Shown: positions 3,059 to 55,665 of the stretch, piece after piece | Layout of the letters: the number at the start of each line of letters is the position of its first letter | Position numbering within the stretch: the first letter of the stretch is position 1 | The notes under the pieces: model-generated | Told to the model about the DNA's origin: nothing | Databases searched by the model: none | What the model saw: the letters and a program-made list of their open reading frames with translations, nothing else | IMG/VR virus record: IMGVR_UViG_3300045988_036843 | Span: 1 to 55,665 of that record | Origin: a virus | Length of the DNA: 55,665 nt | Direction: 5' to 3' (one strand) | Position numbers and translations under genes: made by a program

Positions 3059-3841
3059 GCCTTGCATCTGCTGAGGGTGCAGGGCTTTTATTTTTGTCCT
3101 GCTACAATACAGCCCAATACAAGCGTTTACGGCACGTTTTACGCCGTTAATGCAGTTATACATCCCCGCCACAAAACAGCACACAGGGCTTTACAGGCGC
3201 TTTTCCGGCTATTTGCCGCATTTTACCGACACTATTATATATATGTGTATCCGACTGGACTGCACCACCTGCCCCACGTTGGAGCGTATCACAGCGCCGC
3301 AGCACCTCCAGCACATACAAGATACCAGCACCACGCCGGACACTGTACAGGTCAACGCAGCCGCCTATTATAATAAGGTATATAAGGGTGCAGCGGTGCG
3401 CCGCTATTATAGATCCATGCCAGACAGTGCAGCACATCGCAGACCATGCAAGCCCGGCGGCTTGCAGTCTGGCAGCGGAGCAGTCCAGCGTCATGGGCGC
3501 GGCGGGCGGCGCGGAACCATTGACGGCTACCGCCGTATCTCTTTTCGGGCTTTCGCCCGATAGCTAATAGATGTCAGCAATAGTCGCAGCGTTCCGGCTG
3601 GAATAGTCGTAATATCTTCTGGAATAGTCGTAGTTTCTCCGATAAAATAGTCGTAGAATAGTCGTAAAGTCGTCAGACGGCTAGCTTTTGAAAGTCCTAT
3701 ATATAGTATAGTAGCGAACAGTCCGCTGATAGTCGTAAAGTAATAGTCGTAGCGTTTTCTTGCGAACCATCGTCAAATAGTCGTGTGTTTTTTGTGTGAA
3801 ATAGTCGTTCGCCTTTTAGGAAAAGAGAGGTGCGATAGTCG

Positions 3842-4140
3842 CTAAGTCATCCAACCATTCCAAAAATCACCTCTCGTTCCAATTTCGCATAATATATTCT
3901 TCCGCTAGTTATATCTATTTCGTATAATAACCGTACTTATTATAGTATACAGATATAGTTGCTCCCGATAATTACAGATTATTTCGTATAATAACTCGCA
4001 CCATCCAATTCGGTCTGCTCCTCCTCGATTTAATTCCCAGTAATGCACTATGGTATCTTGCTCAATTCATAGTATTATACCAGGAATAGCCAATGCAACA
4101 TTTGTGCATATTCAACCGACAACAAAACAAAGTCAATTCT
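3842..4140. other. AT-rich block inside the iteron field (possible DNA unwinding element)
   Basis: Visibly AT-rich. Contains a direct repeat ATTTCGTATAATAAC x2 (about 3917 and 3981) and TATAGTATA-like motifs. Confidence 0.45.
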
Positions 4141-4348
4141 CCATGTGAAATAGTCGTAGACCGTCCACCAGTCCGAATCTCACGCCAGTTCTTGCCTTCG
4201 GCCTGCTCTGCTGGCTAACGGTGTAGCTTTTGGAGATAGAGGGTTGTAGGGGGAAAGAACCTTTGCGAAAGCATTTTGTTGTAATTTTCAGTTGTTGCAG
4301 TTGTCGCACCATTTTGGCGTGGGGGCCTCAAACAATTTATTTGTTTGA

Positions 4349-4416
4349 GGGGGGAGTTAGGGGGATTATAGGGGGTAATAGGGGTTGTAGGGGAAAGAGG
4401 GGGAAGAAAAGGGGGG
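4349..4416 (+). repeat. Array of seven G4-G6 tracts with 5-7 nt loops (G-quadruplex-prone; TAGGGG-type repeats)
   Basis: G tracts at 4349-54, 4360-64, 4371-75, 4381-84, 4390-93, 4399-4403 and 4411-16. A further GTAGGGGG lies at 4246-4253. Confidence 0.8.
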
Positions 4417-4423
4417 AAGATTG

Positions 4424-4466
4424 GATGCAAACGCATCATGTGCATCCATTTGCATGCAAACGCATC
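4424..4466. repeat. Two copies of palindromic (G)ATGCAAACGCATC
   Basis: Copies at 4424-4437 and 4454-4466. Each is GATGC-AAAC-GCATC, with TGCATCC/TGCATGC motifs between them. Confidence 0.75.
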
Positions 4467-4981
4467 TTGCCGATAGTCGCAGTCATTCTTTGCTTCCGTC
4501 TCACTTTGCCCTCCGATTGGACGAATAGTCGTTGGCATCTGTGCATCTGGCTGCTATCATCGCTGGAAAGGCGCGTAGGAGCCTGTCTGCCGCGTTTTTC
4601 TGATTGACCCAATAACTTTCACGTCTGACCTTGAAAAGCCGTTCTCCACGCTCCTGCATCGGGCTGATTGCGCGGTCTGGTTTGAGATATACCATCAGCA
4701 TCAACGGAGAGCCGCCTACGAGCGTCTGTGGCGCGTTTTTGCAATGAAACAGATAAAGTTATCGTCCAGTACCTAAAACGCCTTAAAACAGGCTTTCTCT
4801 CGGAGTTGGCGAAAAAACGAAAAGAGCCACTATCGCCGGTAGCCCTTTTACGTCCGTTATTTCATTGATGAAAAATATTTGCGAGGTTCAGGCGGTAACT
4901 TTATCGCCCAGACCCTGTTATCTGTTTTTCTTGCCTATTCTACTGTGACGATACGAACACAGAAGAGATGCTAGGCTACTA

Positions 4982-5257
4982 TCACTCAATCGCTTCGTAT
5001 GTTTTCTCGAAAATGTCAGGTTTACACGGGTAGATTTCGCCATTTACGCCACGAATGATATAATCGCCAGCCCTCGCAACCATAGTCCCTTCAAGCGTTT
5101 TAATCTCGCACCACGCAGGGTCATTGTAAAACTTTCCGAAGTTATGCGTGATAATATCATTGCTACTTACTGCATCCCAGAACCAATCCGCTCCAACAAG
5201 TCCTCGTGCATTGATCTTGAATGCTTCGATAACAACTGGCTTCTTTCTGTATTTCAT
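4982..5257 (-). CDS. PGDYG-domain-like phage protein (91 aa)
   Basis: ORF track 4982..5368. ATG 5257 ([13 protein letters not shown]) behind a GAGGAG RBS. C-terminal [26 protein letters not shown]. Confidence 0.6.
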
Positions 5258-5273: not shown

Positions 5274-6497
5274 TTACATCCACACACATTCTTTGAACTG
5301 CTGCGTTTCCATCTGGAACGTGATGTCCAGTGACCCCACGTTGCCCTCTTTGTTCTTCTCAAGCGCAAAGTGATAATGCTGCTCTGGTCGCTTTTTCGTG
5401 GTCACGTTCTGCGCCAGCAGGATGATTGCATCTGCGTCCTGCTCAATCTGTCCGCTCTCTCGTAGGTCTGCGGCAGTCGGTGGAATACCTGCTCTTGCAG
5501 TCTCTCGATTGAGCTGTGCAAGTGCTACCACCAGCGTTCCTGTGGACTGCGCGAACTCATGCAGTGCCATGCTGATCTCCGTGACAGCACTGTATCGGTC
5601 TTTCGCTCCGGCTTGATGGATAAGCTGCAAATAGTCGATGAACACTACTTTGGCTTGCATCCTGATAGACTGCGTTCTAATCCACCCAACGCTCTTACCA
5701 GCGGCAGAGCGGACAAACAGAGGATATTTCTTGATGGCTGCCAGCCGGTCAAGTTCGTCAATGCTGACAGTCTTGTTTTTGACCGTGTGCAGCGGTACGC
5801 CTAGCTGGTTTGCGATAATACGGGCATAGAGTGTGTCCGGGTCGGTCTCTAGGCTGAAATACGCCACTTTGCGTCCGTTCTTGGCTATTTCACAGGCAAG
5901 TTGCAGGGACAGAGCGGTTTTACCCGCAGACGGTCTGCCGCCGATCACAACGAAGTTGCCCGGCACAAGATGCAAGTTGTTATCCAGAACTCTAAGCCCT
6001 GTACTGATATACTCCGGCTTATCATCCAGCTTGCGAATGTAGTTGTCTATGCCATCGCACATTGGGATGAAATCGCTTCTCTCGTTGTGCAGGTTGATAG
6101 CTTCGCCTAGCTGCTCATAGATGCCTGTCAAGTCTGCGTATCTGGTCGAGTTATCAACGATTTTGAACGCAATCTCTCTGGCTCTAGACAACGCTGCCTG
6201 TTCTTTGACGATTCTAGCCCATCCAAGCATCATGTCATGGGTGACGTTGCGGATGAACTCTGCACCAAAGGCATCCAGGCATTCACCCATTGCTTTCTTG
6301 CAGTTATCGTACCGCCCCATGACTTCTACCGGGTTCCACTTGTCATTGTGTTCCCAATATCCGAGAATGGCAGCGAATGTATCATGCAGTTCAGGGCAGA
6401 AATCGTCGATTTTAAGGTCTTGCAGCACATCGGCGTATTCCGAGAACGTGAGGACTGCCCCCAGCAGGATGTATTGGGTCTGATTTTCAATATTCAC
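5274..6497 (-). CDS. dnaB: Replicative DNA helicase, DnaB family
   Basis: 407 aa. Walker [25 protein letters not shown], and a RecA-like C-terminal domain with LAQLNRE and [10 protein letters not shown]. Confidence 0.85.
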
Positions 6498-7174
6498 CGC
6501 AGAAAGTCTCCCTCGTCAGGCAATTCAGCCATCGTCTGCTGATAGCCGCCGTTCCAGTCCTTCACGTTACGCATCCAGTTCCGTGCAGCAGCTTTCCAGT
6601 CCTTCATAGGCGACTTGCCGACCTTCCAACCATTTGCCGTAAAGTGGTCAACAAACCGCTCTGCTTCTGATTCCATGTAGCCCTTCTCGGAAAAGTATTC
6701 TTTGGCTTGTTCGATAGTCGGAGCTTTGAAGCGTTTGACTTCGTTGGTATTTTTCTTTTCACATTTTTCTTTTTTATCAGATTCAGATACAGAATCAGAT
6801 ACAGATAAGCTACCATTCGTATCAGTTGGTATGTTTGGTATACCATTTATACCATTCGTATCTTGTGATACTATTGGTATGCTTTCGTATTTTTTATCGT
6901 TCCAACGCTTATTTATATTTTTCTTGTTTGCTTCTCGTCTACGCTTATCACGTTCTTCCATCTTCTGCACGTTCATATCATCAAACGCCTTAACAACTTT
7001 CCAGAGCATCCGCATAGCACGGTCGTTGTCGTATGATGGCTCAAGTCCAGTCTCAACATACTGTGCATAGTTGCGGATGAATGCTCCAAATTCCTCGTCT
7101 GTCAGCTCGTCCATCGCATGGACGTGTTCCAGCAGAAGAATCATTGATGTTCTCGGCTTGTGTTCCTGCTCCAT
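6494..7174 (-). CDS. Phage replisome organizer / replication initiation-like protein
   Basis: ORF track 6494..7204. ATG 7174. The N-terminal helical domain and the C-terminal EQAKEYFSEKGY...FVDHFTANGWKVGKSPMKDWKAAARNW are typical of phage DnaD/organizer-like proteins. Overlaps the helicase start. Confidence 0.5.
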   Translation of the reverse strand: MEQEHKPRTSMILLLEHVHAMDELTDEEFGAFIRNYAQYVETGLEPSYDNDRAMRMLWKVVKAFDDMNVQKMEERDKRRREANKKNINKRWNDKKYESIPIVSQDTNGINGIPNIPTDTNGSLSVSDSVSESDKKEKCEKKNTNEVKRFKAPTIEQAKEYFSEKGYMESEAERFVDHFTANGWKVGKSPMKDWKAAARNWMRNVKDWNGGYQQTMAELPDEGDFLR

Positions 7175-7176
7175 AC

Positions 7177-7422
7177 TTAATCCTCTTTGTAGCGTTTGTT
7201 CCACGCTTCGATAGCGTCTTTGCGTCCATCGTGGATAATTTCAATCTCTCCACTATCGTTCATTTTGAACTCGATTTGATAGCATCTATCAGGAATTGTG
7301 GCTTTGCATTTAGAGCATCGGATATTAAATTCATACCCTCGCAGAAGGTTGCATGAAGATGCGGTATTAATGGAAAATACAGCTTTTCCACCGCAGAACG
7401 GACATCTCTTAAGTTCTTCCAT
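7177..7422 (-). CDS. lar: Lar-family restriction alleviation-like protein
   Basis: 81 aa. LKRCPFCGG...CSKC...AIEAWNKR matches the Lar_restr_allev pattern. Confidence 0.55.
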   Translation of the reverse strand: MEELKRCPFCGGKAVFSINTASSCNLLRGYEFNIRCSKCKATIPDRCYQIEFKMNDSGEIEIIHDGRKDAIEAWNKRYKED

Positions 7423-9229: not shown

Positions 9230-9429
9230 TTTTTCTGCCCTCTCTTTTCCTTATTGAACCGTCCGATCACTCGCCTATACTCTGCATAGCACTCCGGGCA
9301 CAGGTCGCCTGTGTCCCTGCGCCACGCCCAGTCCTTGAAGTATTCGTCAGGGTTCATTATCCTGCCGCCAAGAACCGCTCCGCAGCGGTCGCATACTCGC
9401 TTGTGGTAGATTCCTTTATCAGTTTGCAT
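9226..9429 (-). CDS. Zn-ribbon hypothetical protein
   Basis: 67 aa with CDRCG...CPEC. Confidence 0.55.
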   Translation of the reverse strand: MQTDKGIYHKRVCDRCGAVLGGRIMNPDEYFKDWAWRRDTGDLCPECYAEYRRVIGRFNKEKRGQKK

Positions 9430-9995
9430 TAGCGCTCCTTTTCATCAAATTTCTTCTGCATCTTGGCTCTCAACGCTTCGATACGTTCTTTGTCGTCAGT
9501 GATAATCTCATACTTGTCGCCAGACCAGCCAAGCGGAACATCTTCCGTGTATTCGATATAGATTTTTTCCGGGTGCGTAGGTGGCTCATAAGGGAACGTC
9601 ACGTTTTTGCGAAAGCGGCTACTTGTAAACCACGTAAGGCCACCGTTGTCGGAATAAGCGATTGCGTCAATGTCGTGCACTTCAATCGTGTTACCTTGTG
9701 CATCAGTGGTCTTGAACACGCTTGAGCATCGTTTATTTTGGAAGTATCTTTGCCCCATTTCGTCCGACACTTCTGTCCATTCATCATCTTCGCCAGTCAG
9801 CGGAGTAATAGGTTTGAAGCGCAAAAGTCGCTCCAGAATAGACATTGCATATCCAGCGGTAAATCCACTATGGCCTTGACTTGCAAAAAGTTCAATAATG
9901 TCAAGGATGTTCTTGTTGATTACATCCTGCAATCCGTCTCCGTCTTTCGTAATACGTGCAAGTTCTGATTTTGCATATTCTACGGAATCACTCAT
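9429..9995 (-). CDS. Hypothetical protein (188 aa)
   Basis: ORF track 9429..10016. ATG 9995 behind a GGGGAGGA RBS. Confidence 0.6.
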   Translation of the reverse strand: MSDSVEYAKSELARITKDGDGLQDVINKNILDIIELFASQGHSGFTAGYAMSILERLLRFKPITPLTGEDDEWTEVSDEMGQRYFQNKRCSSVFKTTDAQGNTIEVHDIDAIAYSDNGGLTWFTSSRFRKNVTFPYEPPTHPEKIYIEYTEDVPLGWSGDKYEIITDDKERIEALRAKMQKKFDEKER

Positions 9996-9996
9996 T

Positions 9997-10779
9997 TTAT
10001 TTGTCCTCCCCAACATCCTTAAACAGGATTTCTTTGTCAGCTTTCCAGTCTTTGATTTTGCACGGAATGTCCGTTCCGGGCACTGTCTTTTTCAGCCCAT
10101 CCATCTGCCAGACGTTCCATGAGACGGTATCTGCGATGCAGTCAAGAAACATAGGCATACAGCCGATTTCCAGCCTTTTAGCATCAAACCGATACCTAAA
10201 ATTTTCGATCAGCGTCAGGAACAGGTTGCATCTTGCCAGCAAGAGATTGTCCCCCTGCCACTCATAGCCGTATGTCGATGCGTAGGCGTCGATTGCCCAG
10301 CACATCCACATATCGTAGTCATGGAACTGCTCTGCCAGAACATTCAGCTTCCTATCCAGCAAACCGATTCTGTCCGGCACGGCAATCATCTGCCCTGTTG
10401 TAGTATCGTATCGGCTTGTCAGAAACGGCGCTTCTCCACAGGTGACTTCAAGACAAGTCTTGTTGATGTACTCCTTCCAGTCCTCGCCCTTCAGGTCGTT
10501 TTCGGCAACGTCTGCCATCTTCTTGCAAACCCAAGTCGGCGTAAACACCTCTGCTTTCTTGCTGGTTCTCTTTTTCTGGTCTGCAAGCCGTTTCTGCACA
10601 CGAGGGACAAGCTGAACCTTGTCCAACTGTTCCAGCGTGATTTCATCTGCAAAGCCCACGCCTAGTTCAGGCGGCGGGTCTGTCGCCCAGATGATGTTCT
10701 TTCCTGTCGTGTGGTCTTGCAAGAGGACAGGAAGGAACGTGCGTAGGCAGGGGTCGGAGAAGTTAATCAAAGTTTCCAT
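9997..10779 (-). CDS. DNA methyltransferase-like protein (restriction subunit M-like)
   Basis: 260 aa. KKAEVFTPTWV and LEVTCGEAPFL resemble N6-MTase AdoMet-binding motifs. I did not find a clear (D/N)PP(Y/F) motif. Confidence 0.4.
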   Translation of the reverse strand: METLINFSDPCLRTFLPVLLQDHTTGKNIIWATDPPPELGVGFADEITLEQLDKVQLVPRVQKRLADQKKRTSKKAEVFTPTWVCKKMADVAENDLKGEDWKEYINKTCLEVTCGEAPFLTSRYDTTTGQMIAVPDRIGLLDRKLNVLAEQFHDYDMWMCWAIDAYASTYGYEWQGDNLLLARCNLFLTLIENFRYRFDAKRLEIGCMPMFLDCIADTVSWNVWQMDGLKKTVPGTDIPCKIKDWKADKEILFKDVGEDK

Positions 10780-10961
10780 TGGTCAGCCCTCACCATAATT
10801 GTGTTCTTTTCTTTCAGCCAATCCTTGACGCAATGAAAGCAATGCTCACGGTTCTGGCAACGCTCTGGGTCACGATGCTTAATAAGCTCGCAGATGCCCC
10901 GCGTAAAGTTTTCTGTAATATCTTCGTCCGTCATGGAGCGGATAAAATCGCCGTTAGTCAT
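10767..10961 (-). CDS. Hypothetical protein (64 aa)
   Basis: ORF in the operon, overlapping both neighbours. Confidence 0.5.
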   Translation of the reverse strand: MTNGDFIRSMTDEDITENFTRGICELIKHRDPERCQNREHCFHCVKDWLKEKNTIMVRADQWKL

Positions 10962-11721
10962 CCTCGACCACCTCTTCTGCTACCTCTTTGTACTCCACGT
11001 CAATCCCTTTCGGCAAAGCCGTCTGGTACTTCTGAGCCAACTGTTCTGCGCTCTGGGCATCGCCCAACGGCTGTTCAGGCGGCGCAACGGTGACTTCCAC
11101 GTTGTCACGCATACCAAAGTAATTCTTGGCTCGGAAAATCCACTCTGCCGGGTTCTCCTGACCGTACATACCGTTATATGCCCACATGGACTGCATTTGC
11201 AGAATCAGCTTGAGGATGTACTTCTGCTGCAAGCTGTCGTCACGGCGTTTTCCCGCCATAATCTGCTTCAGGCTCACCCATTCGATGCCAAGCACCAGTG
11301 CAATCCATTCCACCACAGGGGAGATTCTGGCTTCGATGCAAGCGTCAAAGAAGAAGTCAAGACGCTGCTGCACTTCAATCGGATTGTTCATGTCCACGCT
11401 CGGAAGGTCGCCAAAATACTTTGCTGCAATCATGCCGATGACCTTTTTGTCCTCTTCATCGCCAATTCTCGACTGCAAATCGCCTGTGTTCAGCATCTTA
11501 GACCTTGTGATTGCTAACTCCTGTTGTTCTTTCACCTTTTTACTCACCTGTGAGCGGATAGATTTCCGCTTGTTAAGCATCTGCTGTTTCTTCTTCTCTC
11601 GCTCTTTCTCACGCTTCGCAGCGGCTTCTTCTTTCGCCTTTTGCGCCCGTTTCTCACGCTTTTTCTTCTCAGCTTCGGTCAGTGGCGGTCTGCCACGACC
11701 ACGCTTCGGGGGTGTTGCCAT
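10954..11721 (-). CDS. terS: Terminase small subunit-like protein with N-terminal AT-hook
   Basis: 255 aa. KRGRGRPP AT-hook, Lys/Glu-rich linker, then VEWIALVLGIEWVSLKQI...AEWIFRAKNYFGMRD, resembling the HTH core of Firmicutes-phage TerS (GP3_package-like). Confidence 0.5.
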   Translation of the reverse strand: MATPPKRGRGRPPLTEAEKKKREKRAQKAKEEAAAKREKEREKKKQQMLNKRKSIRSQVSKKVKEQQELAITRSKMLNTGDLQSRIGDEEDKKVIGMIAAKYFGDLPSVDMNNPIEVQQRLDFFFDACIEARISPVVEWIALVLGIEWVSLKQIMAGKRRDDSLQQKYILKLILQMQSMWAYNGMYGQENPAEWIFRAKNYFGMRDNVEVTVAPPEQPLGDAQSAEQLAQKYQTALPKGIDVEYKEVAEEVVEDD

Positions 11722-22640: not shown

Positions 22641-22953
22641 TTGTCGAATTATCGCAGTTTTTGAAGAACATCTTGTACACCTTTCAACGAATTGATTTCT
22701 ACTTGTGATGCATATATTTCTCTTGTTGCGTAGATAAATAACGTTAATATGTTATGTTTTTGCTCGCCCTAGCAAAATTATAACTTGATTATCAAAACTA
22801 AAACCTGTGCACATTAAGTACACCATTGTGTAAAATTGACTTTCATTTTGATAAAATAAGAAAAAAATAGAGATTATGGAGCTTCTTCTTTTGTTTAGTA
22901 GAAGATTATTTAACTCTTGTTTATAATCTTGTTTATATATAATGTAAGAATGG

Positions 22954-23044
22954 GTACGAGATGTGCATGATTGGGTACGAGATGTGCATAAGCGTGTACG
23001 AGATGTGCATCAAATAAGGGGGTCTATGTGTACAAGATGTGCAT
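22954..23044 (+). repeat. Four iterons GTAC(G/A)AGATGTGCAT upstream of rep
   Basis: Copies at 22954-68, 22975-89 and 22996-23010 (21-bp spacing) and at 23030-44. An AT-rich region precedes them. Additional GTACAC(C) motifs lie nearby. Confidence 0.8.
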
Positions 23045-23100
23045 GAATCAATGTAAGTGAATAAAACTATTGACGTGTACACCTTTATGTGATAAAATGA

Positions 23101-24201
23101 GTGTACAGAGAAAGGAGATGTACACTATTGGCAGAACTTTACGAAAATAACCTGATTGAAAAAAGCAAGGCGCTTGTTTGGGCAGAGTTTAATGATTACA
23201 CTGTTGGAGAACTGCGGCTTTTGGAAGTATATCTTAGCCGTATCAATCCTAGAGATGAAAAATCTAGCGAAGTCAAGTTTACCCTTTCGGAATATTGCGA
23301 TTTGCTTGGGCTGCGTGTTAATAGCAGGAACATCGAGAAACAAATTGAACATTTTCTTGGAAACGTTGTGACGCTTCCCCTTAATGATGATGGAAGCGAG
23401 TACAATATGTATACGCTTTTTACGAAAGCAAGTGTTACGATTGATAAAAACTTAGGAATGTACGTCGTTACCCTCTGCTGCAATCCTGAATTGAGAAGTG
23501 TTTTCTTCGATATTGCTAAGAGCGGTTATATCAAGTATAGACTTCGCTATACGGTTAAAATGAAATCGCAGTATAGCATTCTGCTCTATTCGATGCTGCG
23601 AGATATGATGAATCGTGGTGGAGACCATTTTGATATCAGCATCAATCGGCTCCGTTCACATCTCGGCGCAAATGCAGGATGCTATGAGAGTTTCAAAAAC
23701 TTTAGACGGAGAGTTTTGGATGCAGCAGTTGAAGAAATCAATGATGTGTCAGACATTTATGTTACTTACGAAAAAATCTCGTTTGGAAACAAGGCTGTTG
23801 CCGTTTCTTTTGTCGCCAAGAAAAAAGACGAAAAGCCTGTCGCTGAATTAAAGGCGAAAGAATATAAAGAGGAACTTCCGTTCAATGACAACATTCTTGT
23901 CAGCCGACCGAATAAAAAGGCTTACAGTGATGTAGATTGGGAGAATATAGCGCCAGACCTTGAGAAATCAGAGTGCATCGGCATTGCAAGAATGGTTGGG
24001 AAAAGGATGATCGAGAGCTTCCCTGCTATTAAGGCTCATAAGAAGAAAGCTGCCGTTGTAAATATTGTGAGTAATGCGTACAATAAAATCTTGAAAGACA
24101 AGAAGGAATGGCCTGATAACCCCGCTGGCTATCTTTACAGAGTTATCGAAAACTCCGACTTGGATGAGTTTGCGACTTTTGACGATAGCTTCTTGAAGTA
24201 G
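23101..24201 (+). CDS. rep: Plasmid-type replication initiator (Rep_3/RepB-like winged-helix)
   Basis: 366 aa. The layout NNLIEKSKALVWA...ELRLLEVYLSRI...YIKYRLRYTVKMKSQYSILLYSML...FKNFRRRVLDAAVEEIN, plus upstream iterons, resembles theta-plasmid initiators. Start is GTG 23101 or TTG 23128. Confidence 0.65.
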   Translation: MYRERRCTLLAELYENNLIEKSKALVWAEFNDYTVGELRLLEVYLSRINPRDEKSSEVKFTLSEYCDLLGLRVNSRNIEKQIEHFLGNVVTLPLNDDGSEYNMYTLFTKASVTIDKNLGMYVVTLCCNPELRSVFFDIAKSGYIKYRLRYTVKMKSQYSILLYSMLRDMMNRGGDHFDISINRLRSHLGANAGCYESFKNFRRRVLDAAVEEINDVSDIYVTYEKISFGNKAVAVSFVAKKKDEKPVAELKAKEYKEELPFNDNILVSRPNKKAYSDVDWENIAPDLEKSECIGIARMVGKRMIESFPAIKAHKKKAAVVNIVSNAYNKILKDKKEWPDNPAGYLYRVIENSDLDEFATFDDSFLK

Positions 24202-25175: not shown

Positions 25176-25955
25176 ATGGCAAAAATCATAGCTGTCGCCA
25201 ATCAGAAGGGCGGCACAGGAAAGACCACAACAAGCACCTGTTTGGCTGGTGCGTTGCAGTTACTTGGCGAGAAGGTCTTGCTAGTGGACTGCGATGCCCA
25301 GTGCAACGCAACGGACACCTACGGCGCACAGACAGAGGACGTATGCACCCTGTTTGATGTGATGACCAGGCAGGGCACGGTCGAAGAAGGAATCCAGCAC
25401 TGTGAAGCTGGTGACATTCTTCCGTCTGATAACGCATTGAAGGACATTGACGAACAGCTTGTGCGGGACATAGGCAAGAACTTCCGGCTGCGAGAAGCCC
25501 TTGAAAGCGTGTCTGAGCAGTATGATTACATTGTGTTGGACACTCCCCCGCAGCTTGGTCTTGCGCTTGTGAACGCTCTGATCGCCGCCAACAGCATCAT
25601 CGTGCCCATCACAGCAGACCGATATGCACTGGCTGGTTTGAGCCAGCTTTCGCAGACCATCGGCGATGTTCGCAGATATTTCAATCCGACTTTGAAGATT
25701 GAAGGATTGCTTCTGAATCAGTACAAGAGCCGTGAGAACCTGTCCAAAGAGGTTGTGGAGCAGCTTCCTGTGATTGCACAGAGCATGGGAACAACCCTGC
25801 TGGATGTGAAGATTAGACCATCTATGGGCGTCCGTAAGGCGCAGGCAGAGCGTCACAGCCTGTTTAGCGGAGACACGGCAAAGAGCACCAGCGCAGAGGA
25901 TTTCAAGGCGTTGGCGCAGATGATTGTGGAGGGAGATAACAATGCGACTGATTGA
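25176..25955 (+). CDS. parA: ParA/Soj-family partition ATPase
   Basis: 259 aa. Deviant Walker A ANQKGGTGKTTT, DCDAQ, IVLDTPP. Confidence 0.85.
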   Translation: MAKIIAVANQKGGTGKTTTSTCLAGALQLLGEKVLLVDCDAQCNATDTYGAQTEDVCTLFDVMTRQGTVEEGIQHCEAGDILPSDNALKDIDEQLVRDIGKNFRLREALESVSEQYDYIVLDTPPQLGLALVNALIAANSIIVPITADRYALAGLSQLSQTIGDVRRYFNPTLKIEGLLLNQYKSRENLSKEVVEQLPVIAQSMGTTLLDVKIRPSMGVRKAQAERHSLFSGDTAKSTSAEDFKALAQMIVEGDNNATD

Positions 25956-26278: not shown

Positions 26279-26851
26279 ATGAAATCAACCAGCAAAAAAT
26301 CCTCAGGCTTGCTTGGCGGGTTTGATTTCCGGCCTATTTTTTCGGAGCAGGCATTAAGCCGAAGTGAGCCAAAGGAAGAAGAAGTAAGCCAAGCAAAGCC
26401 GAACGAAGCTGAACAAGCACCGATTAAGCCCAGTGAAGCCACAGACAGCCATGCACAGCCCAATGAAGCACAGTTAAGCAGTATTAAGCCGAAGCATGCC
26501 AAAGACAGCGAAATACAGCCAAACAATGCCGTAGTAAGCGAAAGTAAGCCAAAGAAGTTGAAACAGGCGAGGGAAGTTCAACGTCTTATCGAACAGGGCG
26601 ATGTTCCCGGCGCACTAGCCGAAGCTGGTTTGACAAAGAAAAAAATCCCGATGCCAGTATCGCATCAGGGCGTTGCAAGTGGCGATGGCAAGCGTTCAAA
26701 GCGCATTACCATCCTTATGAGCGAGGAAGAGCGCAAGTACATCAACCGTGAAGCCAGACGGCATGGAATGACGATTGGGCAGTTCGTGTACGCTCTGGCG
26801 GTTGCAGCGGCAGAGGGAAAGATTGAGTTGGAGGATTTCTTGGAGGATTGA
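26279..26851 (+). CDS. Ribbon-helix-helix protein with 10-aa tandem repeats (candidate centromere-binding protein/regulator)
   Basis: 190 aa. C-terminal KRITILMSEEERKYINREARRHGMTIGQFVYALAV is an RHH fold. The N-terminal half has (xxxKPxEAxx)n repeats. Confidence 0.6.
   Translation: MKSTSKKSSGLLGGFDFRPIFSEQALSRSEPKEEEVSQAKPNEAEQAPIKPSEATDSHAQPNEAQLSSIKPKHAKDSEIQPNNAVVSESKPKKLKQAREVQRLIEQGDVPGALAEAGLTKKKIPMPVSHQGVASGDGKRSKRITILMSEEERKYINREARRHGMTIGQFVYALAVAAAEGKIELEDFLED
26351..26550 (+). repeat. 20 tandem 10-bp units (NNNNWRAGCC) in perfect register inside CDS 26279..26851
   Basis: Eleven units end exactly in AGCC and most others differ by 1-2 bases. There are no indels over 200 bp. Confidence 0.9.
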
Positions 26852-27412: not shown

Positions 27413-27546
27413 GGAAAACGCTAGAGGATAGAACAGGCAGCTATCACCCATCGTTAGGAGATGTGGGAATCGTCACCCCACCTAGCTTTTTCAATAGTAA
27501 ACCCCTGTGTAGTCGCAATGACCGCACAGGGGAGAAAGGAAACGAC

Positions 27547-29410: not shown

Positions 29411-29490
29411 AATAAAACAAAATCCCCCACTTTGCCTACAAAGTACCCCGCGTGGCACGCAGGGCTTCGGCAAAGCAGGGGATTTTTTTG
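29411..29490. terminator. Long compound hairpin, bidirectional terminator-like
   Basis: AATCCCCCACTTTGCC (29421-36) pairs with GGCAAAGCAGGGGATT (29469-84). There is an inner CCCCGCG/CGCAGGG stem, and T-runs follow on both strands. Confidence 0.6.
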
Positions 29491-44414: not shown

Positions 44415-45494
44415 TTAGTAAGCCTTGATGCAGTACACAGCGTCCATGCGCTCAAAGGACGGCAGGACGATTTCGGAAGCGTAGACGTTGGCGTTGACCG
44501 GATGAACGGTCAGCTCAGTGGTGATGGCAACGCCAGTGTTCACGATGGACACGGATGCGCCAGACTGACCAGACAGCAAGTCGGCCTCTTCAGGAGTAGT
44601 GCCGTACCAAGTGCTGCCCAGAGCGCCGGAAGGAGCAACCACCACCATGCCATCGGGCAGGTACTTCTCACTTGCGCTGTACTGGTCTGCCTTGAACATC
44701 TTGTCATAAAGATGGATGGTCAGACCGGTTGCAGATTCGATAATCTGCCGTGCTTCGGCATCCAGCAGAACAGCATTTGCCTTTGCGGTGACGGTCATGA
44801 ACCGGTTCTTCACCTCGTCCGCAGCAATCATGTTGCGGAAGGTTGCGGTGTTCATGTAAACCTCAGTCACGACCTCGCCCACGCTCGCCAGAACAGCATC
44901 CTTTGCGGCGTTCAGGTCGGCAATGGGGGTGGCGGTGGCAGCAGACCACTTAGACTTTGCGACACCACTGATATCCTTAAAGTTGGTGGACTTCCAGCCG
45001 CCGTCCGGGTCGTAGTTGTAGGTGTAGTTCACGCCGTTTGCCTTGATGGTGATGCCAGGAATGCCATTGGCGGGAGCCAGAAGCTGCCAGATCATGCGCT
45101 CAGGAACGATACGCGCACCAGTGATAAGCTGTGCGGTGTCATCGTACAGGCGGTTCATCACGTCACGAGCATAGGGGTCGTTGCTGTCAAGAACGCGCAG
45201 GATCTCCTGACGGTCTTTTTCACCCAGATGGTAGCCCTCACGGAAGAACGGCATCTCGGTCTCATCAAACTTGAAGCCCTCACGGGTGCGGAACGTAGCC
45301 TTTGCGTCAAATGCGCTGGGCATCAGAGAAACGCCAACGCCCTTGTGACCACGCAGCCACTTCAGGTCAAGGCCAGCCTTTTTCTTGGCAGGGAACAGTG
45401 CGTCAGATGCAAAGGGCATCGCATTGGTGGGGTCGTTCGTCCAATAGGCGGCAATCGCAGCCGGGGCAAAGACTTCCTTAAGATTCAGTGCCAT
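44415..45494 (-). CDS. Major capsid protein (lambda gpE-like family)
   Basis: 359 aa. N-terminal LKEVFAPAAIAAYW...ALFPAKKKAGLDLKWLRG and overall length fit the gpE-type MCP. Confidence 0.75.
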   Translation of the reverse strand: MALNLKEVFAPAAIAAYWTNDPTNAMPFASDALFPAKKKAGLDLKWLRGHKGVGVSLMPSAFDAKATFRTREGFKFDETEMPFFREGYHLGEKDRQEILRVLDSNDPYARDVMNRLYDDTAQLITGARIVPERMIWQLLAPANGIPGITIKANGVNYTYNYDPDGGWKSTNFKDISGVAKSKWSAATATPIADLNAAKDAVLASVGEVVTEVYMNTATFRNMIAADEVKNRFMTVTAKANAVLLDAEARQIIESATGLTIHLYDKMFKADQYSASEKYLPDGMVVVAPSGALGSTWYGTTPEEADLLSGQSGASVSIVNTGVAITTELTVHPVNANVYASEIVLPSFERMDAVYCIKAY

Positions 45495-46544: not shown

Positions 46545-48059
46545 CTATTCGCCCTCTGTTTCTTTATTGGTATCGGTAGTCTGTTTGTCTTCCGTGTTCC
46601 CGACATTTGCGTCGGTAGCATTCTGTTTGGGCTGTTCCTGCGGCTTCGGTGCTTTCCCATCTTCGCCCAGCTTGCCAGCGGCAATCAGGAAGGGCTTGCT
46701 CATTTCGTAAGCAGCCTGCGGGTCAGGAAACAGACCGGGCGTGGTGAACGCCAACTGCGGGTCAATCGGCTGCTGAATCATCTGCGCAAAAATCTGAACC
46801 TTGCTCTGCTGGTTATCGTACTGACGGCGGGGCAGTTTGATGTTGATGTCACTCGCCATCAGCTTAGAACCAGCCGTGTCACGCAGGATTTTAAGCATTA
46901 CAGACAGGCTTTGGCGTTCCGAGAACTTGAACATATTCTCGTACTGCTGCGCCCTTGCTTCTGTGTGATTCCAGCCGTTGCGGACGATGACTGCGCCCAC
47001 GTTGTCGGACGTTGCGTTCTCGCTACCAGTAGCACTGGGCATGGCGGTCAGGCTGCGGTACACATTCAACATGGAATCAAGCAAAGTCTGGCTCTGCTGC
47101 TGGTCAAGCTCGTTTGCAATCTGCGAAACGGAGGCGGGCAAGCTGGTTGTAGATTTCAAGCACATTGCCCCAAGTTCTTTGACCTGTTTCAGTGCGTTAT
47201 CATCCACAAGACAGTTGGTAAATACCATGATGGACTGGATGAACTGCGCTACACCGTCCAGACGGTTGCTTTCAAGGTCGTTGATGGCATCCAGAACGGG
47301 AATAGCCGGTTCAAACAGACCCATTCGTTCCGGGTTCAGCTTGTATTCGACCATCGGCAACATTCCAAGAGAATGGTTCTCAGACTTTGTAACCTTGCCG
47401 TTGTCGATTTCAAAGTACTGGTTTGGCGTATACACACAAATCAGGTCGTTCAGGTCATTCTGATAATTGCGTGGGATGTGCAGCACGTTGGCAATAGGCT
47501 TGTGCCCGATGCCGGAGTTGTAAATCACATACGCCATGTCGGGGTCGGGAACGTCAACCAGCAGGGGCGTTTCGTCCGGGTAGTTGCCGCCATACCCCTT
47601 GTCAGGAAGAACAATCCGGTATCCCTGTCCGCATTCCAACATCCACTGCCAGAGCCGCCGATCAAGTGCATCTTTACCCTCATACTGCAAGGCGTTAGAC
47701 AGCCGGGCGATTTCCTCACCGTCACCTGTTGCCGTTTCAGACCGCACATAAGAGCAGGGAGTGCCGCTCATGTAGCCTGTGTAGAAGCCCACGCACTCAT
47801 TGGCGTGGTTCTCTACAATGCGGTTCGTGATTTCCGCGTGGTATTCCTTCGTGCGGTGGAGGACTGGCTGGCTACCCAAGTAGTAGTTGTGCAGAAAGCG
47901 AATCTCGTTCTTATTCAGCAGATGAATAGGCTCTGCCTTACCCATGACCACTTTCAGCACGTTCTCCCGATTGATTTCCGTCTCCGGTGTTTCAATCGGT
48001 CTGCGTCCGGTCAGCGGATTATTCAAAAAGCCGCAAACGACCATCTGATACTCAGCCAT
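46545..48059 (-). CDS. Portal protein (SPP1 gp6-like)
   Basis: ORF track 46545..48143. ATG 48059 behind an AAAGGAGGAA RBS. 504 aa, with the acidic/polar C-terminal tail typical of portals. Confidence 0.8.
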   Translation of the reverse strand: MAEYQMVVCGFLNNPLTGRRPIETPETEINRENVLKVVMGKAEPIHLLNKNEIRFLHNYYLGSQPVLHRTKEYHAEITNRIVENHANECVGFYTGYMSGTPCSYVRSETATGDGEEIARLSNALQYEGKDALDRRLWQWMLECGQGYRIVLPDKGYGGNYPDETPLLVDVPDPDMAYVIYNSGIGHKPIANVLHIPRNYQNDLNDLICVYTPNQYFEIDNGKVTKSENHSLGMLPMVEYKLNPERMGLFEPAIPVLDAINDLESNRLDGVAQFIQSIMVFTNCLVDDNALKQVKELGAMCLKSTTSLPASVSQIANELDQQQSQTLLDSMLNVYRSLTAMPSATGSENATSDNVGAVIVRNGWNHTEARAQQYENMFKFSERQSLSVMLKILRDTAGSKLMASDINIKLPRRQYDNQQSKVQIFAQMIQQPIDPQLAFTTPGLFPDPQAAYEMSKPFLIAAGKLGEDGKAPKPQEQPKQNATDANVGNTEDKQTTDTNKETEGE

Positions 48060-48150
48060 GTGTTCCTCCTTTCCGGAAAAATAAAAAGCGCAGCAAGAAA
48101 ACCTGTTAAGGTCTATCTCACTGCGCTTACAACTGCGCTTCAAAAGCTAT

Positions 48151-48501: not shown

Positions 48502-48579
48502 TGGTGCTGCATAATGGATTTGAACCAGTGTATGCCCGGTTATGAGCCGGGTGCTCTAGCCATACTGAGCTAATGCAAC
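48502..48579 (-). tRNA. tRNA with anticodon CAT (Met or Ile2), CCA encoded
   Basis: Hand fold: acceptor GTTGCAT/ATGCAGC, D arm GCTC-AGTATGGCTA-GAGC, anticodon arm CCCGG-CTCATAA-CCGGG, T loop TTCAAAT (one T-stem mismatch), then ACCA. Confidence 0.75.
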
Positions 48580-48712
48580 ATAAAGACCCAGCTTGATTCA
48601 TCGTTGCTCTTTGAAATGGTAAAATGTCACAAAACCCATTTCATCGAGAGCCGGGAATAACGATTGGAGGTTGTAAAAGGAAAATTTCTATGAAAGCAAA
48701 AGTGAATCGTTG

Positions 48713-48796
48713 TGCTGCGTGACGGATTTGAACCGCCTTATTCTGGAAGTCAAGATTTGAAGGGCGAACCAGACCCCATCCAACACGGGACGCAAC
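48713..48796 (-). ncRNA. tRNA-like element (84 nt) with canonical acceptor and T arms but a non-canonical core
   Basis: Acceptor GTTGCGT/ACGCAGC (one base different from the neighbouring tRNA) and T arm GGCGG-TTCAAAT-CCGTC. The 52-nt core contains CTTCAAAT but I could not fold it into D and anticodon arms. No CCA is encoded. Confidence 0.4.
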
Positions 48797-48988
48797 TTAT
48801 ATATCCCAGCAATGGGAAAGAGTGTGGAAACCATTGCTGGGCAGAAAGGAGAACGCCTACAAAGCATTCAGCTCGGAGCCGTAAAGCGTGTAGCAGGCAT
48901 CATGCCGGAGCCGCCAACTCCTTACATACATTATACCAAAAACAACGCTGTAAAGTCAATAAATTAAATTATACGTTACAACTTTTTT

Positions 48989-50656
48989 TCAAAATGGCCT
49001 TTTTATAGGTTCAATTTTGCTGATTCCGTTGTAAAGTTCATCGGCAAGCTGTGCCAGACTGTCCGGCGCATCATCGTGCGGGACTTTGCCAAGCTGCGTA
49101 AACATCGTTAACTGTTCCATGAACGCCTTGTACTCTTTCGACTGGTGTTTTTCGTCAAGGAAATAGAACCGTTTGATGTCCGGCGCATACTGGATGATTC
49201 TTGACAGCTTGCTTTGGCCACTGGGCGCACGTTGACTGCGAACAGAGCAGTGATAGCCTTGCTGCCGAAGCATACTGTCTATACTATCGCAGTATTCATC
49301 GCCACCATTATTGGCTTCACCTCTGTATGTGTTCAATTTATGTTGAATAATTTTTCCGACCGTTTCAGGCTTGGTAACGGTTTTATCGCCATTATTGAAA
49401 ACAACATCGGGAATAAACACAGAACCATTATAAACATAGGCGATGGGGCCGGATGTAAAATCGCCGCCGCCCCAAGCAATATCTTCGACCATGAGCTTAC
49501 GATCAGGCTCTCCGTCAGGCAGAACGCCGTTGAAATACCGCAGTTCATCGGCAGGGAACAACAAGCCTTCACGCACATAGGGCTTGCCCATGTATTTTGC
49601 CCACCATGTTGCATCATCAATGCTGGCTTTCATATCGGCGTAGTAGGCATCGTCAAAGCCCACACCATAGTCATAATTGAAGTTGCTGTGTCCGTTCTCG
49701 TCCACCGCAGGAATCACCCGGAATCTGTACTTCGGATTGTCTGCATACTGGTTCTGAATACGCCCCAGAGGGTCAAGCACGTTCCAGCGTGTACCAACCA
49801 TCAGCTCCAATGCTCCCTGCTTTTTGCGGTCTTTCAGCTGGTTCAGGTAGGCATCGTACTTGTTGTTCAGACGCTCAACATTCAGGCTTTCCTCCAAGTC
49901 CTCAATCAAGTCATCACTGTACAGAACGCCGCCCTCGCCAATTTCAACAGCACCAGTCAACGTACCGCCGATCGAGCGGCAAGTCAGGGTAGGGAAACGC
50001 TTCTTTCGGCTCAGGTCAACGCTTTCATCCTTTGCGCTTTTGTCCACAAGCTGAACTTCAGGGAAGATTTTCCCCCAGTTGTAAGTCACAGGGTCGGTGA
50101 TGATGGACAGCACTTCGCCGTAGAAGCCGTTGGTCAGCTTGTCAGAATGCCCGCTCATAACCGATGCAACGTCAGGGCGGTTGCCCATTAGCCATGTGAT
50201 AAAAAATATACAGAGCGTACTTTTTCCAGTACGCGGGGGCTGACTTACCCCAAGAAATTCTACACGGTGGAAAAACAAGTCCTCTAGGTCACGAACCAAC
50301 GTCAGAAGCACCTTTCTGCGTGGCTGGTAGAACTTCTTCTCCGGCGCACGATTCCATTCAAGGTAGATGCAATAGCTGTCAAACACATCTTTTGCTTCAA
50401 ACAGGTACGTCCGGCCGATAATGTCATAGACCTTTGCCACATCCTCGCCTGTTTTCATCTTGCCCATCATGGCTGCGCAGACAGAACGCAGTTCACCAGA
50501 GTATTTGTAGGCATCGAACCGCTTGTCTTGCGGCAGAACATCTCTCAGGTTCACCACCGCCTGAAACCAGTCCTCGTAGACCTGTGCTTCGGTCGGATTC
50601 TGCTTTGCATACGCTTTGATGCTGTCAATGATAGCGATACACTGTTTTGGCTGCAT
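48989..50656 (-). CDS. terL: Terminase large subunit
   Basis: ORF track 48989..50710. ATG 50656 (MQPKQ). Walker A QPPRTGKST and a C-terminal nuclease-like domain. Confidence 0.85.
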   Translation of the reverse strand: MQPKQCIAIIDSIKAYAKQNPTEAQVYEDWFQAVVNLRDVLPQDKRFDAYKYSGELRSVCAAMMGKMKTGEDVAKVYDIIGRTYLFEAKDVFDSYCIYLEWNRAPEKKFYQPRRKVLLTLVRDLEDLFFHRVEFLGVSQPPRTGKSTLCIFFITWLMGNRPDVASVMSGHSDKLTNGFYGEVLSIITDPVTYNWGKIFPEVQLVDKSAKDESVDLSRKKRFPTLTCRSIGGTLTGAVEIGEGGVLYSDDLIEDLEESLNVERLNNKYDAYLNQLKDRKKQGALELMVGTRWNVLDPLGRIQNQYADNPKYRFRVIPAVDENGHSNFNYDYGVGFDDAYYADMKASIDDATWWAKYMGKPYVREGLLFPADELRYFNGVLPDGEPDRKLMVEDIAWGGGDFTSGPIAYVYNGSVFIPDVVFNNGDKTVTKPETVGKIIQHKLNTYRGEANNGGDEYCDSIDSMLRQQGYHCSVRSQRAPSGQSKLSRIIQYAPDIKRFYFLDEKHQSKEYKAFMEQLTMFTQLGKVPHDDAPDSLAQLADELYNGISKIEPIKRPF

Positions 50657-50768
50657 AAAAAAATAGGCACCCCCTACCTGAAAATGTAAAGAGTGCCTAC
50701 AACTGCACAAAAATCAAATATTCAGCTTTATAATGCTGCTTTAGAAATTTTCTTTATTGACTCGATTT

Positions 50769-50966
50769 TCAAATTCCTTCCGCTGCTTTGATGGCAGCAC
50801 GAACTAATTTATATACGCAAAACTCTCTGTTCTCCCAAGTGGACTTTCGACATTCTTCTGCACACTGAATAATATCCAAAAGGCTCCCTCCGTTCATCAT
50901 TTGAGTCAAAATACGAATATCTTCTTCACTCCACCACTCCGGGACTTTCACAGCTTTGTTGTCCAT
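50769..50966 (-). CDS. Hypothetical protein (65 aa)
   Basis: ORF track 50769..50984. ATG 50966 behind a GAAGGAG RBS. Confidence 0.5.
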   Translation of the reverse strand: MDNKAVKVPEWWSEEDIRILTQMMNGGSLLDIIQCAEECRKSTWENREFCVYKLVRAAIKAAEGI

Positions 50967-51001
50967 ATTTTCTCCTTCGCACAAAAATAAAATACTCGGT
51001 T

Positions 51002-52216
51002 TTATTCTCCAGCTTTGAAATTGTAAATCGGCTTAATATGCTTTACAATATCAACGGTTGGAGAGATTGCGTTGATAATTTCCTGCGCTGGCTTATATGC
51101 CATCGGGCATTCATCCAACGTGGATTCATCGGCTGACGTAGTATAAATGCCGTTCATTTGCTTTTGGTATTCCTCAACGCTGAATGCTTTTTTAGCCGCT
51201 GTTCTGCTATATAGTCTGCCAGCACCATGCGGAGCAGAGAAATTCCAATCAGGATTTCCCTTACCAACACAGATAAGGCTTCCATCTCTCATATTAAGAG
51301 GAATAATCAGCTTCTCGCCCTCTCTAGCGGATACAGAGCCTTTTCGGATAATATCATCCGATTCATCAATATAGTTATGAACGGTTTCAAAGAAGGACGC
51401 ATGGGTCAGCATAGAGTCAATTCCAACACCATCTAAAATAGTGTGCATAATTCTCGCTCGATTCATGCTCGCAAAAGCCTGACAAATCCGCATATCGTTA
51501 AGGTAAGAATCGCGTTCTTTACCTTCGAGATAGCAAAGCTCATTCGGAATATCAGGGAACCGAATATCCAGCTCTTTGATTTTTTGCGAAATTTCCTGTT
51601 CACGACCTTGCTCTTTCAGTTCCGCAATCAGACGTTCCGTAGCTTCTTTTCTTTTGTTCTTTCCTTTGATATTTGAGATAGCTACGCTTTGATGATACTC
51701 TGCAACTTGCTTGCCAAGATTTCGGCTTCCAGTATGGATAACAAGGTACTGGTTTCTTTCTTCGTCTTCGTCCAGCTCGATAAAATGATTGCCGCCGCCC
51801 AAAGTACCCATACTGCGAAGAATCCAGTCAACATTATGTAGACTATCTTTGCATTCAAGCTGGCTAAGGAAAGCATCCGACATTTTCTGCGATTCATGAA
51901 CATTCATTCCAGCCGGAACTCGTTCTCTAATCACTTTATCTAACTTTTTTGGGTCAATGTGTTCAATTCCAAGCTCAGCGACAAGCATTCCGCAACCAAT
52001 GTCCACGCCCACAATATTCGGGATGACTTTCTTGCCCAAATCTGCCGTAAAGCCAATTACGCACCCAGAACCGGCGTGAACGTCTGGCATAATACGAATC
52101 TTGCATCCGTCAACAAAGCTCTGATTGCAAAGCGTCAAAATCTGCTCAGCCGCTTTATCTTCAATATTGTCTGTAAACACCTTTGCGGACGCATATTTTC
52201 CTTCAATCGTTTTCAA
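51002..52216 (-). CDS. rtcB: RtcB-family RNA 3'-phosphate ligase
   Basis: ORF track 51002..52276. A TTG start at 52216 behind an AAAGGAG RBS is preferred. Motifs DVHAGSG, GGGNHFIELD, HTGSRNLG, APHGAGR. Confidence 0.85.
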   Translation of the reverse strand: MKTIEGKYASAKVFTDNIEDKAAEQILTLCNQSFVDGCKIRIMPDVHAGSGCVIGFTADLGKKVIPNIVGVDIGCGMLVAELGIEHIDPKKLDKVIRERVPAGMNVHESQKMSDAFLSQLECKDSLHNVDWILRSMGTLGGGNHFIELDEDEERNQYLVIHTGSRNLGKQVAEYHQSVAISNIKGKNKRKEATERLIAELKEQGREQEISQKIKELDIRFPDIPNELCYLEGKERDSYLNDMRICQAFASMNRARIMHTILDGVGIDSMLTHASFFETVHNYIDESDDIIRKGSVSAREGEKLIIPLNMRDGSLICVGKGNPDWNFSAPHGAGRLYSRTAAKKAFSVEEYQKQMNGIYTTSADESTLDECPMAYKPAQEIINAISPTVDIVKHIKPIYNFKAGE

Positions 52217-52262
52217 CTTGTTCTCCTTTCTTATTCGATTTTGTTTTAGGTTGCGAACAATG

Positions 52263-55537: not shown

Positions 55538-55584
55538 AAAAAAGCCAGTGGTTAGAGAACATCTAGCCGCTGGCTTTTGTGTTT
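55538..55584. terminator. Bidirectional terminator spanning the repeat junction
   Basis: AAAAGCCAGTGG...CCGCTGGCTTTT stem (one G-T pair) with an A-run and a T-run, between convergent ant (+) and CDS 37..747 (-). Confidence 0.65.
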
Positions 55585-55665
55585 ACGGAACTATGAATCG
55601 GCAATCAGTGAATTTGTTTCCATCAAAATCACCGACGAATGTAACGGTCTGGCCGGGAGAAAGCC
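55547..55665. repeat. Direct terminal repeat, right copy (identical to 1..119)
   Basis: See the left copy. Confidence 0.95.

Follow-up and report, generated by a model that had tools for sequence, protein, structure and literature searches.

A conserved ATAGTCG heptamer array in a gut phage-plasmid and its possible role as a packaging signal

What function might be served by more than a dozen copies of a single heptamer, all pointing the same way, in a gene-free stretch at the end of a phage replicative helicase operon? The question is raised by a viral DNA of 55,665 nucleotides (IMG/VR record IMGVR_UViG_3300045988_036843, the whole of which we refer to as the window), where copies of ATAGTCG crowd into positions 3580-4531. 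The original prediction took this region for a second, perhaps lytic, replication origin, in parallel with the two origins of phage P1. From a comparison of close and distant relatives, we suggest that the array travels with the packaging genes and not with the replication genes, and we tentatively put it forward as a multi-heptamer recognition (pac) site for the small terminase subunit (TerS).

The heptamer array and its conservation

Exact copies of ATAGTCG number 16 in the window, all on the + strand, against an expectation of 3.71 ± 2.22 (with a maximum of 9 in 100 shuffles). Thirteen start within 3580-4531 (at 3580, 3603, 3624, 3647, 3658, 3729, 3743, 3777, 3801, 3835, 4150, 4473 and 4525), where chance would supply ~0.1 copies per 1-kb interval; this agrees with the at least 13 same-orientation copies first reported. 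The other three lie inside genes to the right (5631, 6714 and 7956), and three copies over the ~54 kb outside the locus is chance level. The stretch 3580-3841 holds ten copies, whose starts are 23, 21, 23, 11, 71, 14, 34, 24 and 34 bp apart; the spacing of 21-24 bp that had been described as frequent holds for four of these nine intervals, but not for the other five. The extended repeat unit reads R-ATAGTCG-Y-A, and the ten copies form two sub-arrays either side of a conserved core (Table 1), whose short palindrome is GTCGTCAGACGGC in the window and GTCGTCAGACGAC in relatives. The core also holds CCTATATAT, a sequence that is likewise central in the array of a distant phage family described below. 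A literature search for the heptamer as an iteron returned nothing relevant; the heptamer has no evident match to the DnaA box, Spo0A box, parS or Chi, all of which were set aside.

Scanning IMG/VR for a pattern of two spaced units gave more than 120 loci, ~95 of them from 55-60 kb relatives of the window genome, and three faecal virome contigs in GenBank also overlap the region. Across 77 distinct relatives, conservation is 97.5% in the columns of the heptamers and 86% in the remainder (p = 7e-5), which argues that the heptamers are selected DNA sites. The plan of the array is also maintained, with a left cluster of 2-7 units (usually five), a conserved core of ~65 bp, a right cluster of five units and, typically, 2-4 distal copies. 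To the right of the clusters come an AT-rich mosaic (three unrelated cassettes), a conserved block containing a further unit, and a nearly invariant G-tract core (TAGGGGGATTATAGGGGGTAATAGGGGTTGTAGGGG, near-invariant in 51 of 78 relatives). At its right end the G-tract array varies with the type of replisome organizer encoded upstream of the DnaB-type helicase, and so marks a module junction. Comparison with related phages, as proposed alongside the original prediction, thus finds an array that is near-invariant in ~95 relatives while the neighbouring replication genes have been exchanged.

Elsewhere, near matches to the window were not found in PLSDB, and a pattern scan of genome contigs for the array gave single chance matches only, with no relative among them. 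Two further loci from the motif scan (L071 and L057) proved to be giant-virus tandem repeats and are irrelevant.

Arrays at small terminase genes

A scan of IMG/VR with the motif only brought up a distant family (L041/L113), with TerL, portal and serine recombinase 55%, 32% and 43% identical to those of the window. Its members have the same heptamer, an AT-rich core containing CCTATATAT, a G+C-rich non-coding left flank and a small operon in the opposite orientation, and share with the window the gene order towards recombinase, terL and portal. Their replication gene encodes a Cch1/SaPI-Rep-like helicase, and the array starts at the 3′ end of a homologue (E = 3e-25) of the small terminase gene of Clostridium phage Maintenon, the closest cultured relative of the window by TerL (52% identity).

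A search seeded with a TerS alignment collected 80 loci, representing 24 lineages at 70% identity, in which we scored an array wherever one 7-mer had at least four same-strand copies within -60 to +440 of the terS stop codon. Such arrays were found in 10 of the 24 lineages, compared with 8.8% of 396 control windows from the same loci; their motifs are CGACTAT (ATAGTCG read on the other strand), CGACTTT, GTAACTT and CGTGTAGTT. CGACTAT is present in several lineages with TerS just 36-49% identical to the L041 query protein, and in some lineages the heptads abut directly (CGACTATCGACTAT). In every CGACTAT lineage the copies lie nearly all on the coding strand of terS (at most one opposite copy per locus), with sparser ones trailing upstream; in the window, CGACTAT is likewise on the coding strand of both terS and terL, so that the polarity of the array relative to the packaging genes is fixed throughout. 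The common order runs from terS through the array, non-coding DNA and convergent small genes to the serine recombinase, terL and portal.

The lineages with a Cch-like helicase carry a second set of repeats just after the helicase gene, in which iterons particular to each lineage, present in both orientations, surround an AT-rich segment: GGTTAC in L247, CTACTTA in L284 and TGTACAA in L283/L287. L298/L302 have the same layout of iterons and AT-rich DNA (TTACCCCC) after a 701-aa gene of large helicase type. Since a separate origin-like site follows the helicase gene, the terS-proximal array is unlikely to be the origin of these lineages. Moreover, L247 and L284 have the CGACTAT array in common, while their helicases are 32% identical and their helicase-proximal iterons differ. 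Taken together, this suggests that the heptamer array follows the packaging module and not the replication module.

The window's own small terminase is a homologue both of Maintenon TerS and of the L041/L113 gene at the array. A homologue 37% identical to it scores 42.3 bits with the Pfam GP3_package profile, above the cut-off of 29.4, and the protein of L280 also passes. An AlphaFold (AF2) model of the window protein (mean predicted local distance difference test, pLDDT, 78) matches just one structure with a template modelling (TM) score above 0.5, the P22 gp3 nonamer 3P9A (TM 0.54-0.58, probability 0.72, with a weak E-value), and a profile search against PDB sequences yielded weak matches only. 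Judging from the profile of its homologues and the best fold match, we assign the window small terminase to the P22 gp3 family. The protein is also mosaic: it shares its N-terminal 20 residues (MATPPKRGRGRPPLTEAEKK, AT-hook-like) and C-terminal ~35 residues with P0033 (L333, 10001-10759), and the central GP3_package core differs between the two.

We therefore have a genome that encodes a pac-type terminase with a small subunit of the DNA-recognition type (TerL matching PHROG 38, TerS of the GP3_package family) and that assembles as a circle, which fits a permuted headful genome. With this, the repeats themselves, their conservation, their independence of replication type and their polarity at terS in mind, a plausible reading, if still a tentative one, is that the array serves as a multi-heptamer TerS recognition site with a layout like that of P1 pac. 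The interval as a whole would then be a composite cis-acting region, of which the left two-thirds (3580-4261) would form a conserved protein-binding array, with two RATAGTCGYA clusters flanking a conserved AT-rich core and extra copies trailing to the right. We envisage that several TerS subunits, or a wrapped TerS ring, might bind the same-orientation heptamers, that TerL might make its first cut in or near the conserved core, and that headful packaging would then run one way from that cut.

Several observations weigh against a packaging role. In the window family the replication genes separate terS from the array, a distance of 6-7 kb, and no array is seen after terS itself. Neither the helix-turn-helix (HTH) nor the core of TerS co-varies simply with the motif, and one relative (L333/P0033) keeps the array though its TerS core is only 37% identical. 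The statistic for terS adjacency comes from loci that were chosen by their TerS, such that other conserved neighbours may account for the adjacency; the serine recombinase, for instance, is present in all nine sampled CGACTAT lineages, but also in four others. The P22 pac shares a short string with the repeat unit (see below), and its AGTCG strand is the one written 5′-3′ as pac; if this is the coding strand of gene 3, the orientation here would be the opposite one. Finally, an array with adjacent AT-rich DNA also fits an origin.

Looking beyond the window family, RATAGTCGYA-type arrays could be an undescribed, portable class of multi-copy packaging signal, common to otherwise unrelated phages and phage-plasmids of gut Firmicutes and the same across TerS alleles less than 40% identical; we regard this broader proposal as possible, and hold it less firmly than the packaging role itself. 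Were it true, recognition would have to proceed via something conserved, for instance the AT-hook-like N-terminus of TerS or the geometry of ring wrapping, and not via a single specific site, and elements with the same array could package or pirate each other's DNA. Specific binding of TerS to pac in vitro is weak or not measurable according to a 2022 review (PMC9611059). A site of 10-19 identical heptamers, which occurs in many distant phages as well as in ~100 genomes from an abundant phage-plasmid family of the human gut, would offer a simple substrate for tests of multi-site or ring-wrapping models, and pac sites, hence transduction potential, would become predictable in uncultured gut phages.

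Other binding proteins, an origin or an RNA

The array might instead bind some other conserved phage or host protein, as a centromere for ParA and a ribbon-helix-helix (RHH) protein, as an operator or silencing array, or as a polar barrier to forks or nucleases at a junction of convergent transcription. Short heptads with variable spacing, abutting in some lineages, resemble the sites of small RHH-type binders, and the genome encodes both ParA and an RHH protein; the strict polarity and the one-sided ‘comet’ of sparser copies would suit a polar element, as would a position between convergent terminators, and no single protein was found to co-vary with the motif. However, the array is not beside a parA/parB operon: the ParA and RHH genes are ~21 kb away, at 25.2-26.9 kb, with repeats of their own. 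Nor would a centromere or a barrier role predict that many lineages have their array tight against the terS stop codon, and the absence of heptamer enrichment elsewhere in the genome argues against a Chi-like host signal. On balance we find this group of explanations doubtful. The repeats of the par locus (26353-26554) comprise ~20 units of xAAGCCxAAG inside the N-terminal part of the RHH gene; their period of 10 bp is not a multiple of 3, which places the repeat at the DNA level, and we note it as a candidate partition centromere.

In the origin model, ATAGTCG would be the iteron of a second (lytic, theta-type) origin, with an initiator binding the array, the AT-rich block melting and the adjacently encoded DnaB being loaded. 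Since the genome is a phage-plasmid, with a Rep_3 initiator, ParA and a full virion module, a P1-like division of labour is a reasonable expectation, and much of the description given with the original prediction holds: the locus is gene-free, appears selected, has one-orientation repeats beside AT-rich DNA, and is separate from the Rep_3 origin, whose iterons (GTACGAGATGTGCAT, four copies in 22953-23045) are, as stated, unrelated to ATAGTCG. The spacings are partly near multiples of 11 bp; 150-nt windows at 3850-3900 lie in the lowest 1-2.5% of genome G+C, and those at 3850-3950 in the lowest 1-7%; and the locus stands at the end of the DnaB/organizer operon, with the helicase and organizer genes to its right, as had been stated, and one small gene in between. 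Origins with iterons on either side of an AT-rich core are a common design in these phages, and in an unrelated small contig (L030) the AT-rich tract right after a primase-helicase gene is surrounded by ATAGTCG copies of both orientations, a SaPI-like layout.

What tells against the origin model is chiefly the behaviour of the array when the replication genes change. At least four types of organizer, differing in the N-terminus or over the whole protein, are encoded upstream of DnaB among relatives carrying an identical array: type a (the window), type b (N- and C-termini both different), type c (a third N-terminus) and a fourth that is differently placed (L001-type, MT836154); in MT836154 the Rep gene is different as well and the array unchanged. 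The co-variation with an initiator that would be expected of an iteron origin is therefore lacking, and it is this part of the prediction, ATAGTCG as helicase-linked iterons, that is not supported. Further, the AT-rich block is mosaic, its three unrelated cassette types showing no correlation with organizer type in the relatives; the 3850-3950 block is less AT-rich than either the organizer linker or the Rep_3 origin; GC and AT skew in the window track gene orientation only; and the same array occurs in phages whose helicase has an origin-like site of its own. As for L030, it and the window have no protein in common, no DNA-binding domain was found to be shared between the L030/L041 helicase C-termini and any window protein, and the heptamer match may be a coincidence of a locus selected by pattern. 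We consider it unlikely, then, that the heptamers are origin iterons.

Better candidates for an origin of the helicase module are close at hand. The ATGCAAACGCAT palindromes accompany organizers of types a and c only, being absent from this position in type b, and the a2 variant has a further 2-6 copies of them within the linker of the organizer gene. Because these palindromes and the right end of the G-tract array segregate with organizer type, the right-hand part of the interval (G-tract and ATGCAAACGCAT, 4326-4469), which appears to belong to the exchangeable DnaB/organizer module, would be a more likely place for an origin than the heptamers, and the ATGCAAACGCAT palindromes are candidates for an organizer-binding or origin element. 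One caveat is that the G-tract is a recombination junction, and the correlation of palindrome with organizer could partly be simple linkage. The organizer linker (6743-6899) is an alternative origin candidate, being among the most AT-rich spots of the genome (30% G+C) and containing TTGGTAT/ATACCAA direct and inverted repeats. In a2-type relatives, 2-6 ATGCAAACG units stand in the linker in place of these repeats. There is a lesson here for annotation: iterons and AT-rich DNA beside a helicase gene are not sufficient for calling an origin and, in this instance, co-variation points elsewhere.

That the region is a transcribed non-coding RNA locus, its repeats acting in RNA, we judge very unlikely: the gene-free stretch between terminators is long, C-tracts on the minus strand would resemble anti-Shine-Dalgarno motifs and the minus-strand fold z-score is marginal (-1.77), but the + strand folds worse than shuffles (z = +1.59), Rfam gave no match over the region at the gathering score and only noise at permissive thresholds (E<=5), a clear promoter was not found in it, and both mosaic cassettes and variation in repeat copy number fit DNA sites better.

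The wider genome and comparison with known systems

The features of the interval and the main genes of the genome are listed in Table 1. The stretch without a convincing gene runs from ~3060 to ~4980, longer than the original prediction gave, and is bounded by convergent terminator-like hairpins (3523-3550 on the + strand and 4849-4810 on the minus strand); a long-range inverted repeat (3525-3557/4808-4844), considered as a possible pair of element ends, is this same pair of hairpins. Within the interval first reported, the only open reading frames (ORFs) of more than 100 aa (4215-4538 minus and 4230-4607 plus) cross the G-tract and have low-complexity, Pro- or Gly/Arg-rich products, and those in the left flank (3060-3563) are of low complexity and in several frames; the absence of a credible ORF is thus confirmed, and a tRNA scan of the region found none. 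Also confirmed are the AT-rich block with its duplicated direct repeat (now placed at 3916-3931 and 3980-3995), and the G-tract array with its two palindromes, which we locate at 4351-4420 (~6 phased units of (T/A)AGGGG at ~10-bp spacing) and 4424-4466. The solitary G-tract unit at 4241-4261 is the junction where MT836154-type genomes go over to another replication module. Two of the three GenBank virome contigs break inside the G-tract array from opposite sides (L002 ends at ~4362 and L003 starts at ~4405), which could reflect either sequencing or assembly trouble at G-runs, or a real discontinuity.

Table 1. Coordinates of features in and around the array, and of selected genes of the window
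Feature	Position	Strand	Remarks
G+C-rich conserved non-coding flank left of array	3060-3563	.	ends in hairpin 3523-3550 (+)
Left sub-array, five copies of RATAGTCGYA	3580-3664	+	2-7 copies in relatives
Conserved core between sub-arrays	3666-3728	.	degenerate unit AAAGTCG, short palindrome, TTGAAAGTCCTATATATAGTATAGTA
Right sub-array, five heptamers	3729-3841	+	heptamers and spacers both highly conserved
AT-rich mosaic cassette	3842-4095	.	type 1 of 3; TATTTCGTATAATAAC direct repeat, two copies
Block common to all variants	4096-4261	.	heptamer at 4150; solitary G-tract unit GGGTTGTAGGGGGAAAGAACC at 4241-4261
10-bp hairpin, then G-tract array	4326-4420	.	hairpin at 4326-4350
Two palindromes	4421-4469	.	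GATGCAAACGCATC (4424-4437), cATGCAAACGCATC (4453-4466); common core ATGCAAACGCAT
Two distal heptamers (4473, 4525)	4473-4531	+	
Terminator-like hairpin, end of helicase operon	4810-4849	-	
Small gene, 91 aa from internal ATG	4982-5257	-	PHROG 419/4502/1810
DnaB-type replicative helicase (DnaB_C)	5274-6497	-	one heptamer at 5631
Organizer	6494-7204	-	DUF6291 N-terminal domain and conserved C-terminal domain; heptamer at 6714
TerS, assigned to P22 gp3 family	10954-11721	-	AT-hook-like N-terminus KRGRGRPP
Rep_3 initiator	23101-24201		
ParA	25176-25955		
RHH protein (NikA-like)	26279-26851		just after ParA
Major head protein	44415-45494		
Portal	46545-48143		
TerL (large terminase)	48989-50710	-	matches PHROG 38
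Small serine recombinase	52721-53296	-	upstream of terL

The assembly of the window is complete and circular, or circularly permuted, with ~55,546 bp and 48% G+C; its ends (1-119 and 55547-55665) are identical over a 119-bp overlap. Within 48502-52276, upstream of TerL, are a tRNA-Met gene region and a gene for an RtcB-type RNA ligase (51002-52276). The TerL ORF encodes 573 aa in the window and 884 aa in the L113 homologue (4280-6934 of L113), the latter having a large internal insertion that is intein-like by eye. Within this TerS/TerL group, many lineages (among L248-L313) have a small serine recombinase of invertase/resolvase type immediately or closely upstream of terL, the gap between terS and terL is regularly 2.5-4.5 kb, and in one TerS-related family the contig ends cluster upstream of terS with no terminal sequence in common, and so are uninformative.

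The small + strand operon to the left of the array (1916-2938) is preceded by three copies of a palindrome, AACACTAAAAAGTGTT, in 1783-1885, overlapping a promoter with TTGACA and TATAAT-like elements; this promoter looks operator-controlled. An exact 14-nt direct repeat, GCAGACCATGCAAG, stands at 1665-1678 and 3439-3452, in G+C-rich non-coding stretches on either side of the operon. We rejected an invertible segment for the serine recombinase, given that the G+C-rich flanks have just this 14-nt direct match in common and the orientation of the operon is constant in 22 of 22 relatives. Long non-coding stretches here are depleted of T on one strand (10% T at 1540-1760 in the window, and 4% T over 430 nt at 5740-6170 in L280); they are rich in C, A and G, and flank the small convergent operon beside the arrays. 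Other features include a homologue of Tad3 (anti-Thoeris; 9429-10016, E = 1.6e-35) and, outside the array region, two Rfam RNAs, skipping-rope (27417-27489, 58.9 bits) and DUF3800-VIII (29421-29484, 82.2 bits).

How does the array compare with systems that are better understood? The pac site of P22 is gaagatttatctgaagtcgtta (PMC5261728). It is a single asymmetric site of 22 bp within gene 3 (PMC9611059), and pac sites generally lie in or near terS (PMC9611059). The P22 site and the repeat unit have AGTCGT(T) in common, a match with a chance of roughly 1%, which we treat as a lead only and not as a test. Likenesses to P22 extend to the TerS family (Pfam PF16677, from the profile on close homologues and the best fold), to a circular assembly as for headful packaging, and to a putative pac near terS in the distant relatives; in P22, however, there is one copy inside terS, whereas here there are many outside it, 6-7 kb off in the window family.

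Among iteron origins, that of lambda sits inside the O gene, and the SaPI origin, close behind the rep gene, has an AT-rich segment between iterons. The array resembles these, and P1 oriR, in placing direct repeats by AT-rich DNA downstream of replication genes. It differs in that the specificity of initiator for iteron is not seen here, the array being invariant with swapped organizers and occurring also beside unrelated replication systems that have their own sites. The SaPI layout is matched instead by the helicase-proximal iterons of L247, L284, L283/L287 and L298/L302, and it is the organizer linker of the window, AT-rich and full of repeats, that resembles an origin within an initiator gene as in lambda.

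The omega protein of inc18 plasmids binds 7-bp heptads as centromeres and operators, and pAD1 has 8-bp iterons. Units of 7-8 bp with variable or abutting spacing are a point of likeness, as are the RHH protein and ParA encoded here; in contrast, our array lies away from the par genes, which have their own repeats, and is tied to terS in distant relatives.

Lastly, P1 pac spans ~162 bp and contains TGATCA/G hexamers, split four and three by the cleavage region, which are recognised by PacA/PacB. Here the motif is a heptamer in 10-19 copies of one orientation over up to 1 kb, with no link to GATC or Dam; the TerS is of the P22 gp3 family and not PacA; and the site lies outside the terminase gene, with cleavage only proposed. 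What the two have in common is clusters of a short motif on either side of a core, cis-acting and independent of the replication genes, in a phage-plasmid with a separate plasmid origin and partition system. By analogy, then, the closer P1 parallel for the ATAGTCG array would seem to be pac, and not oriL.

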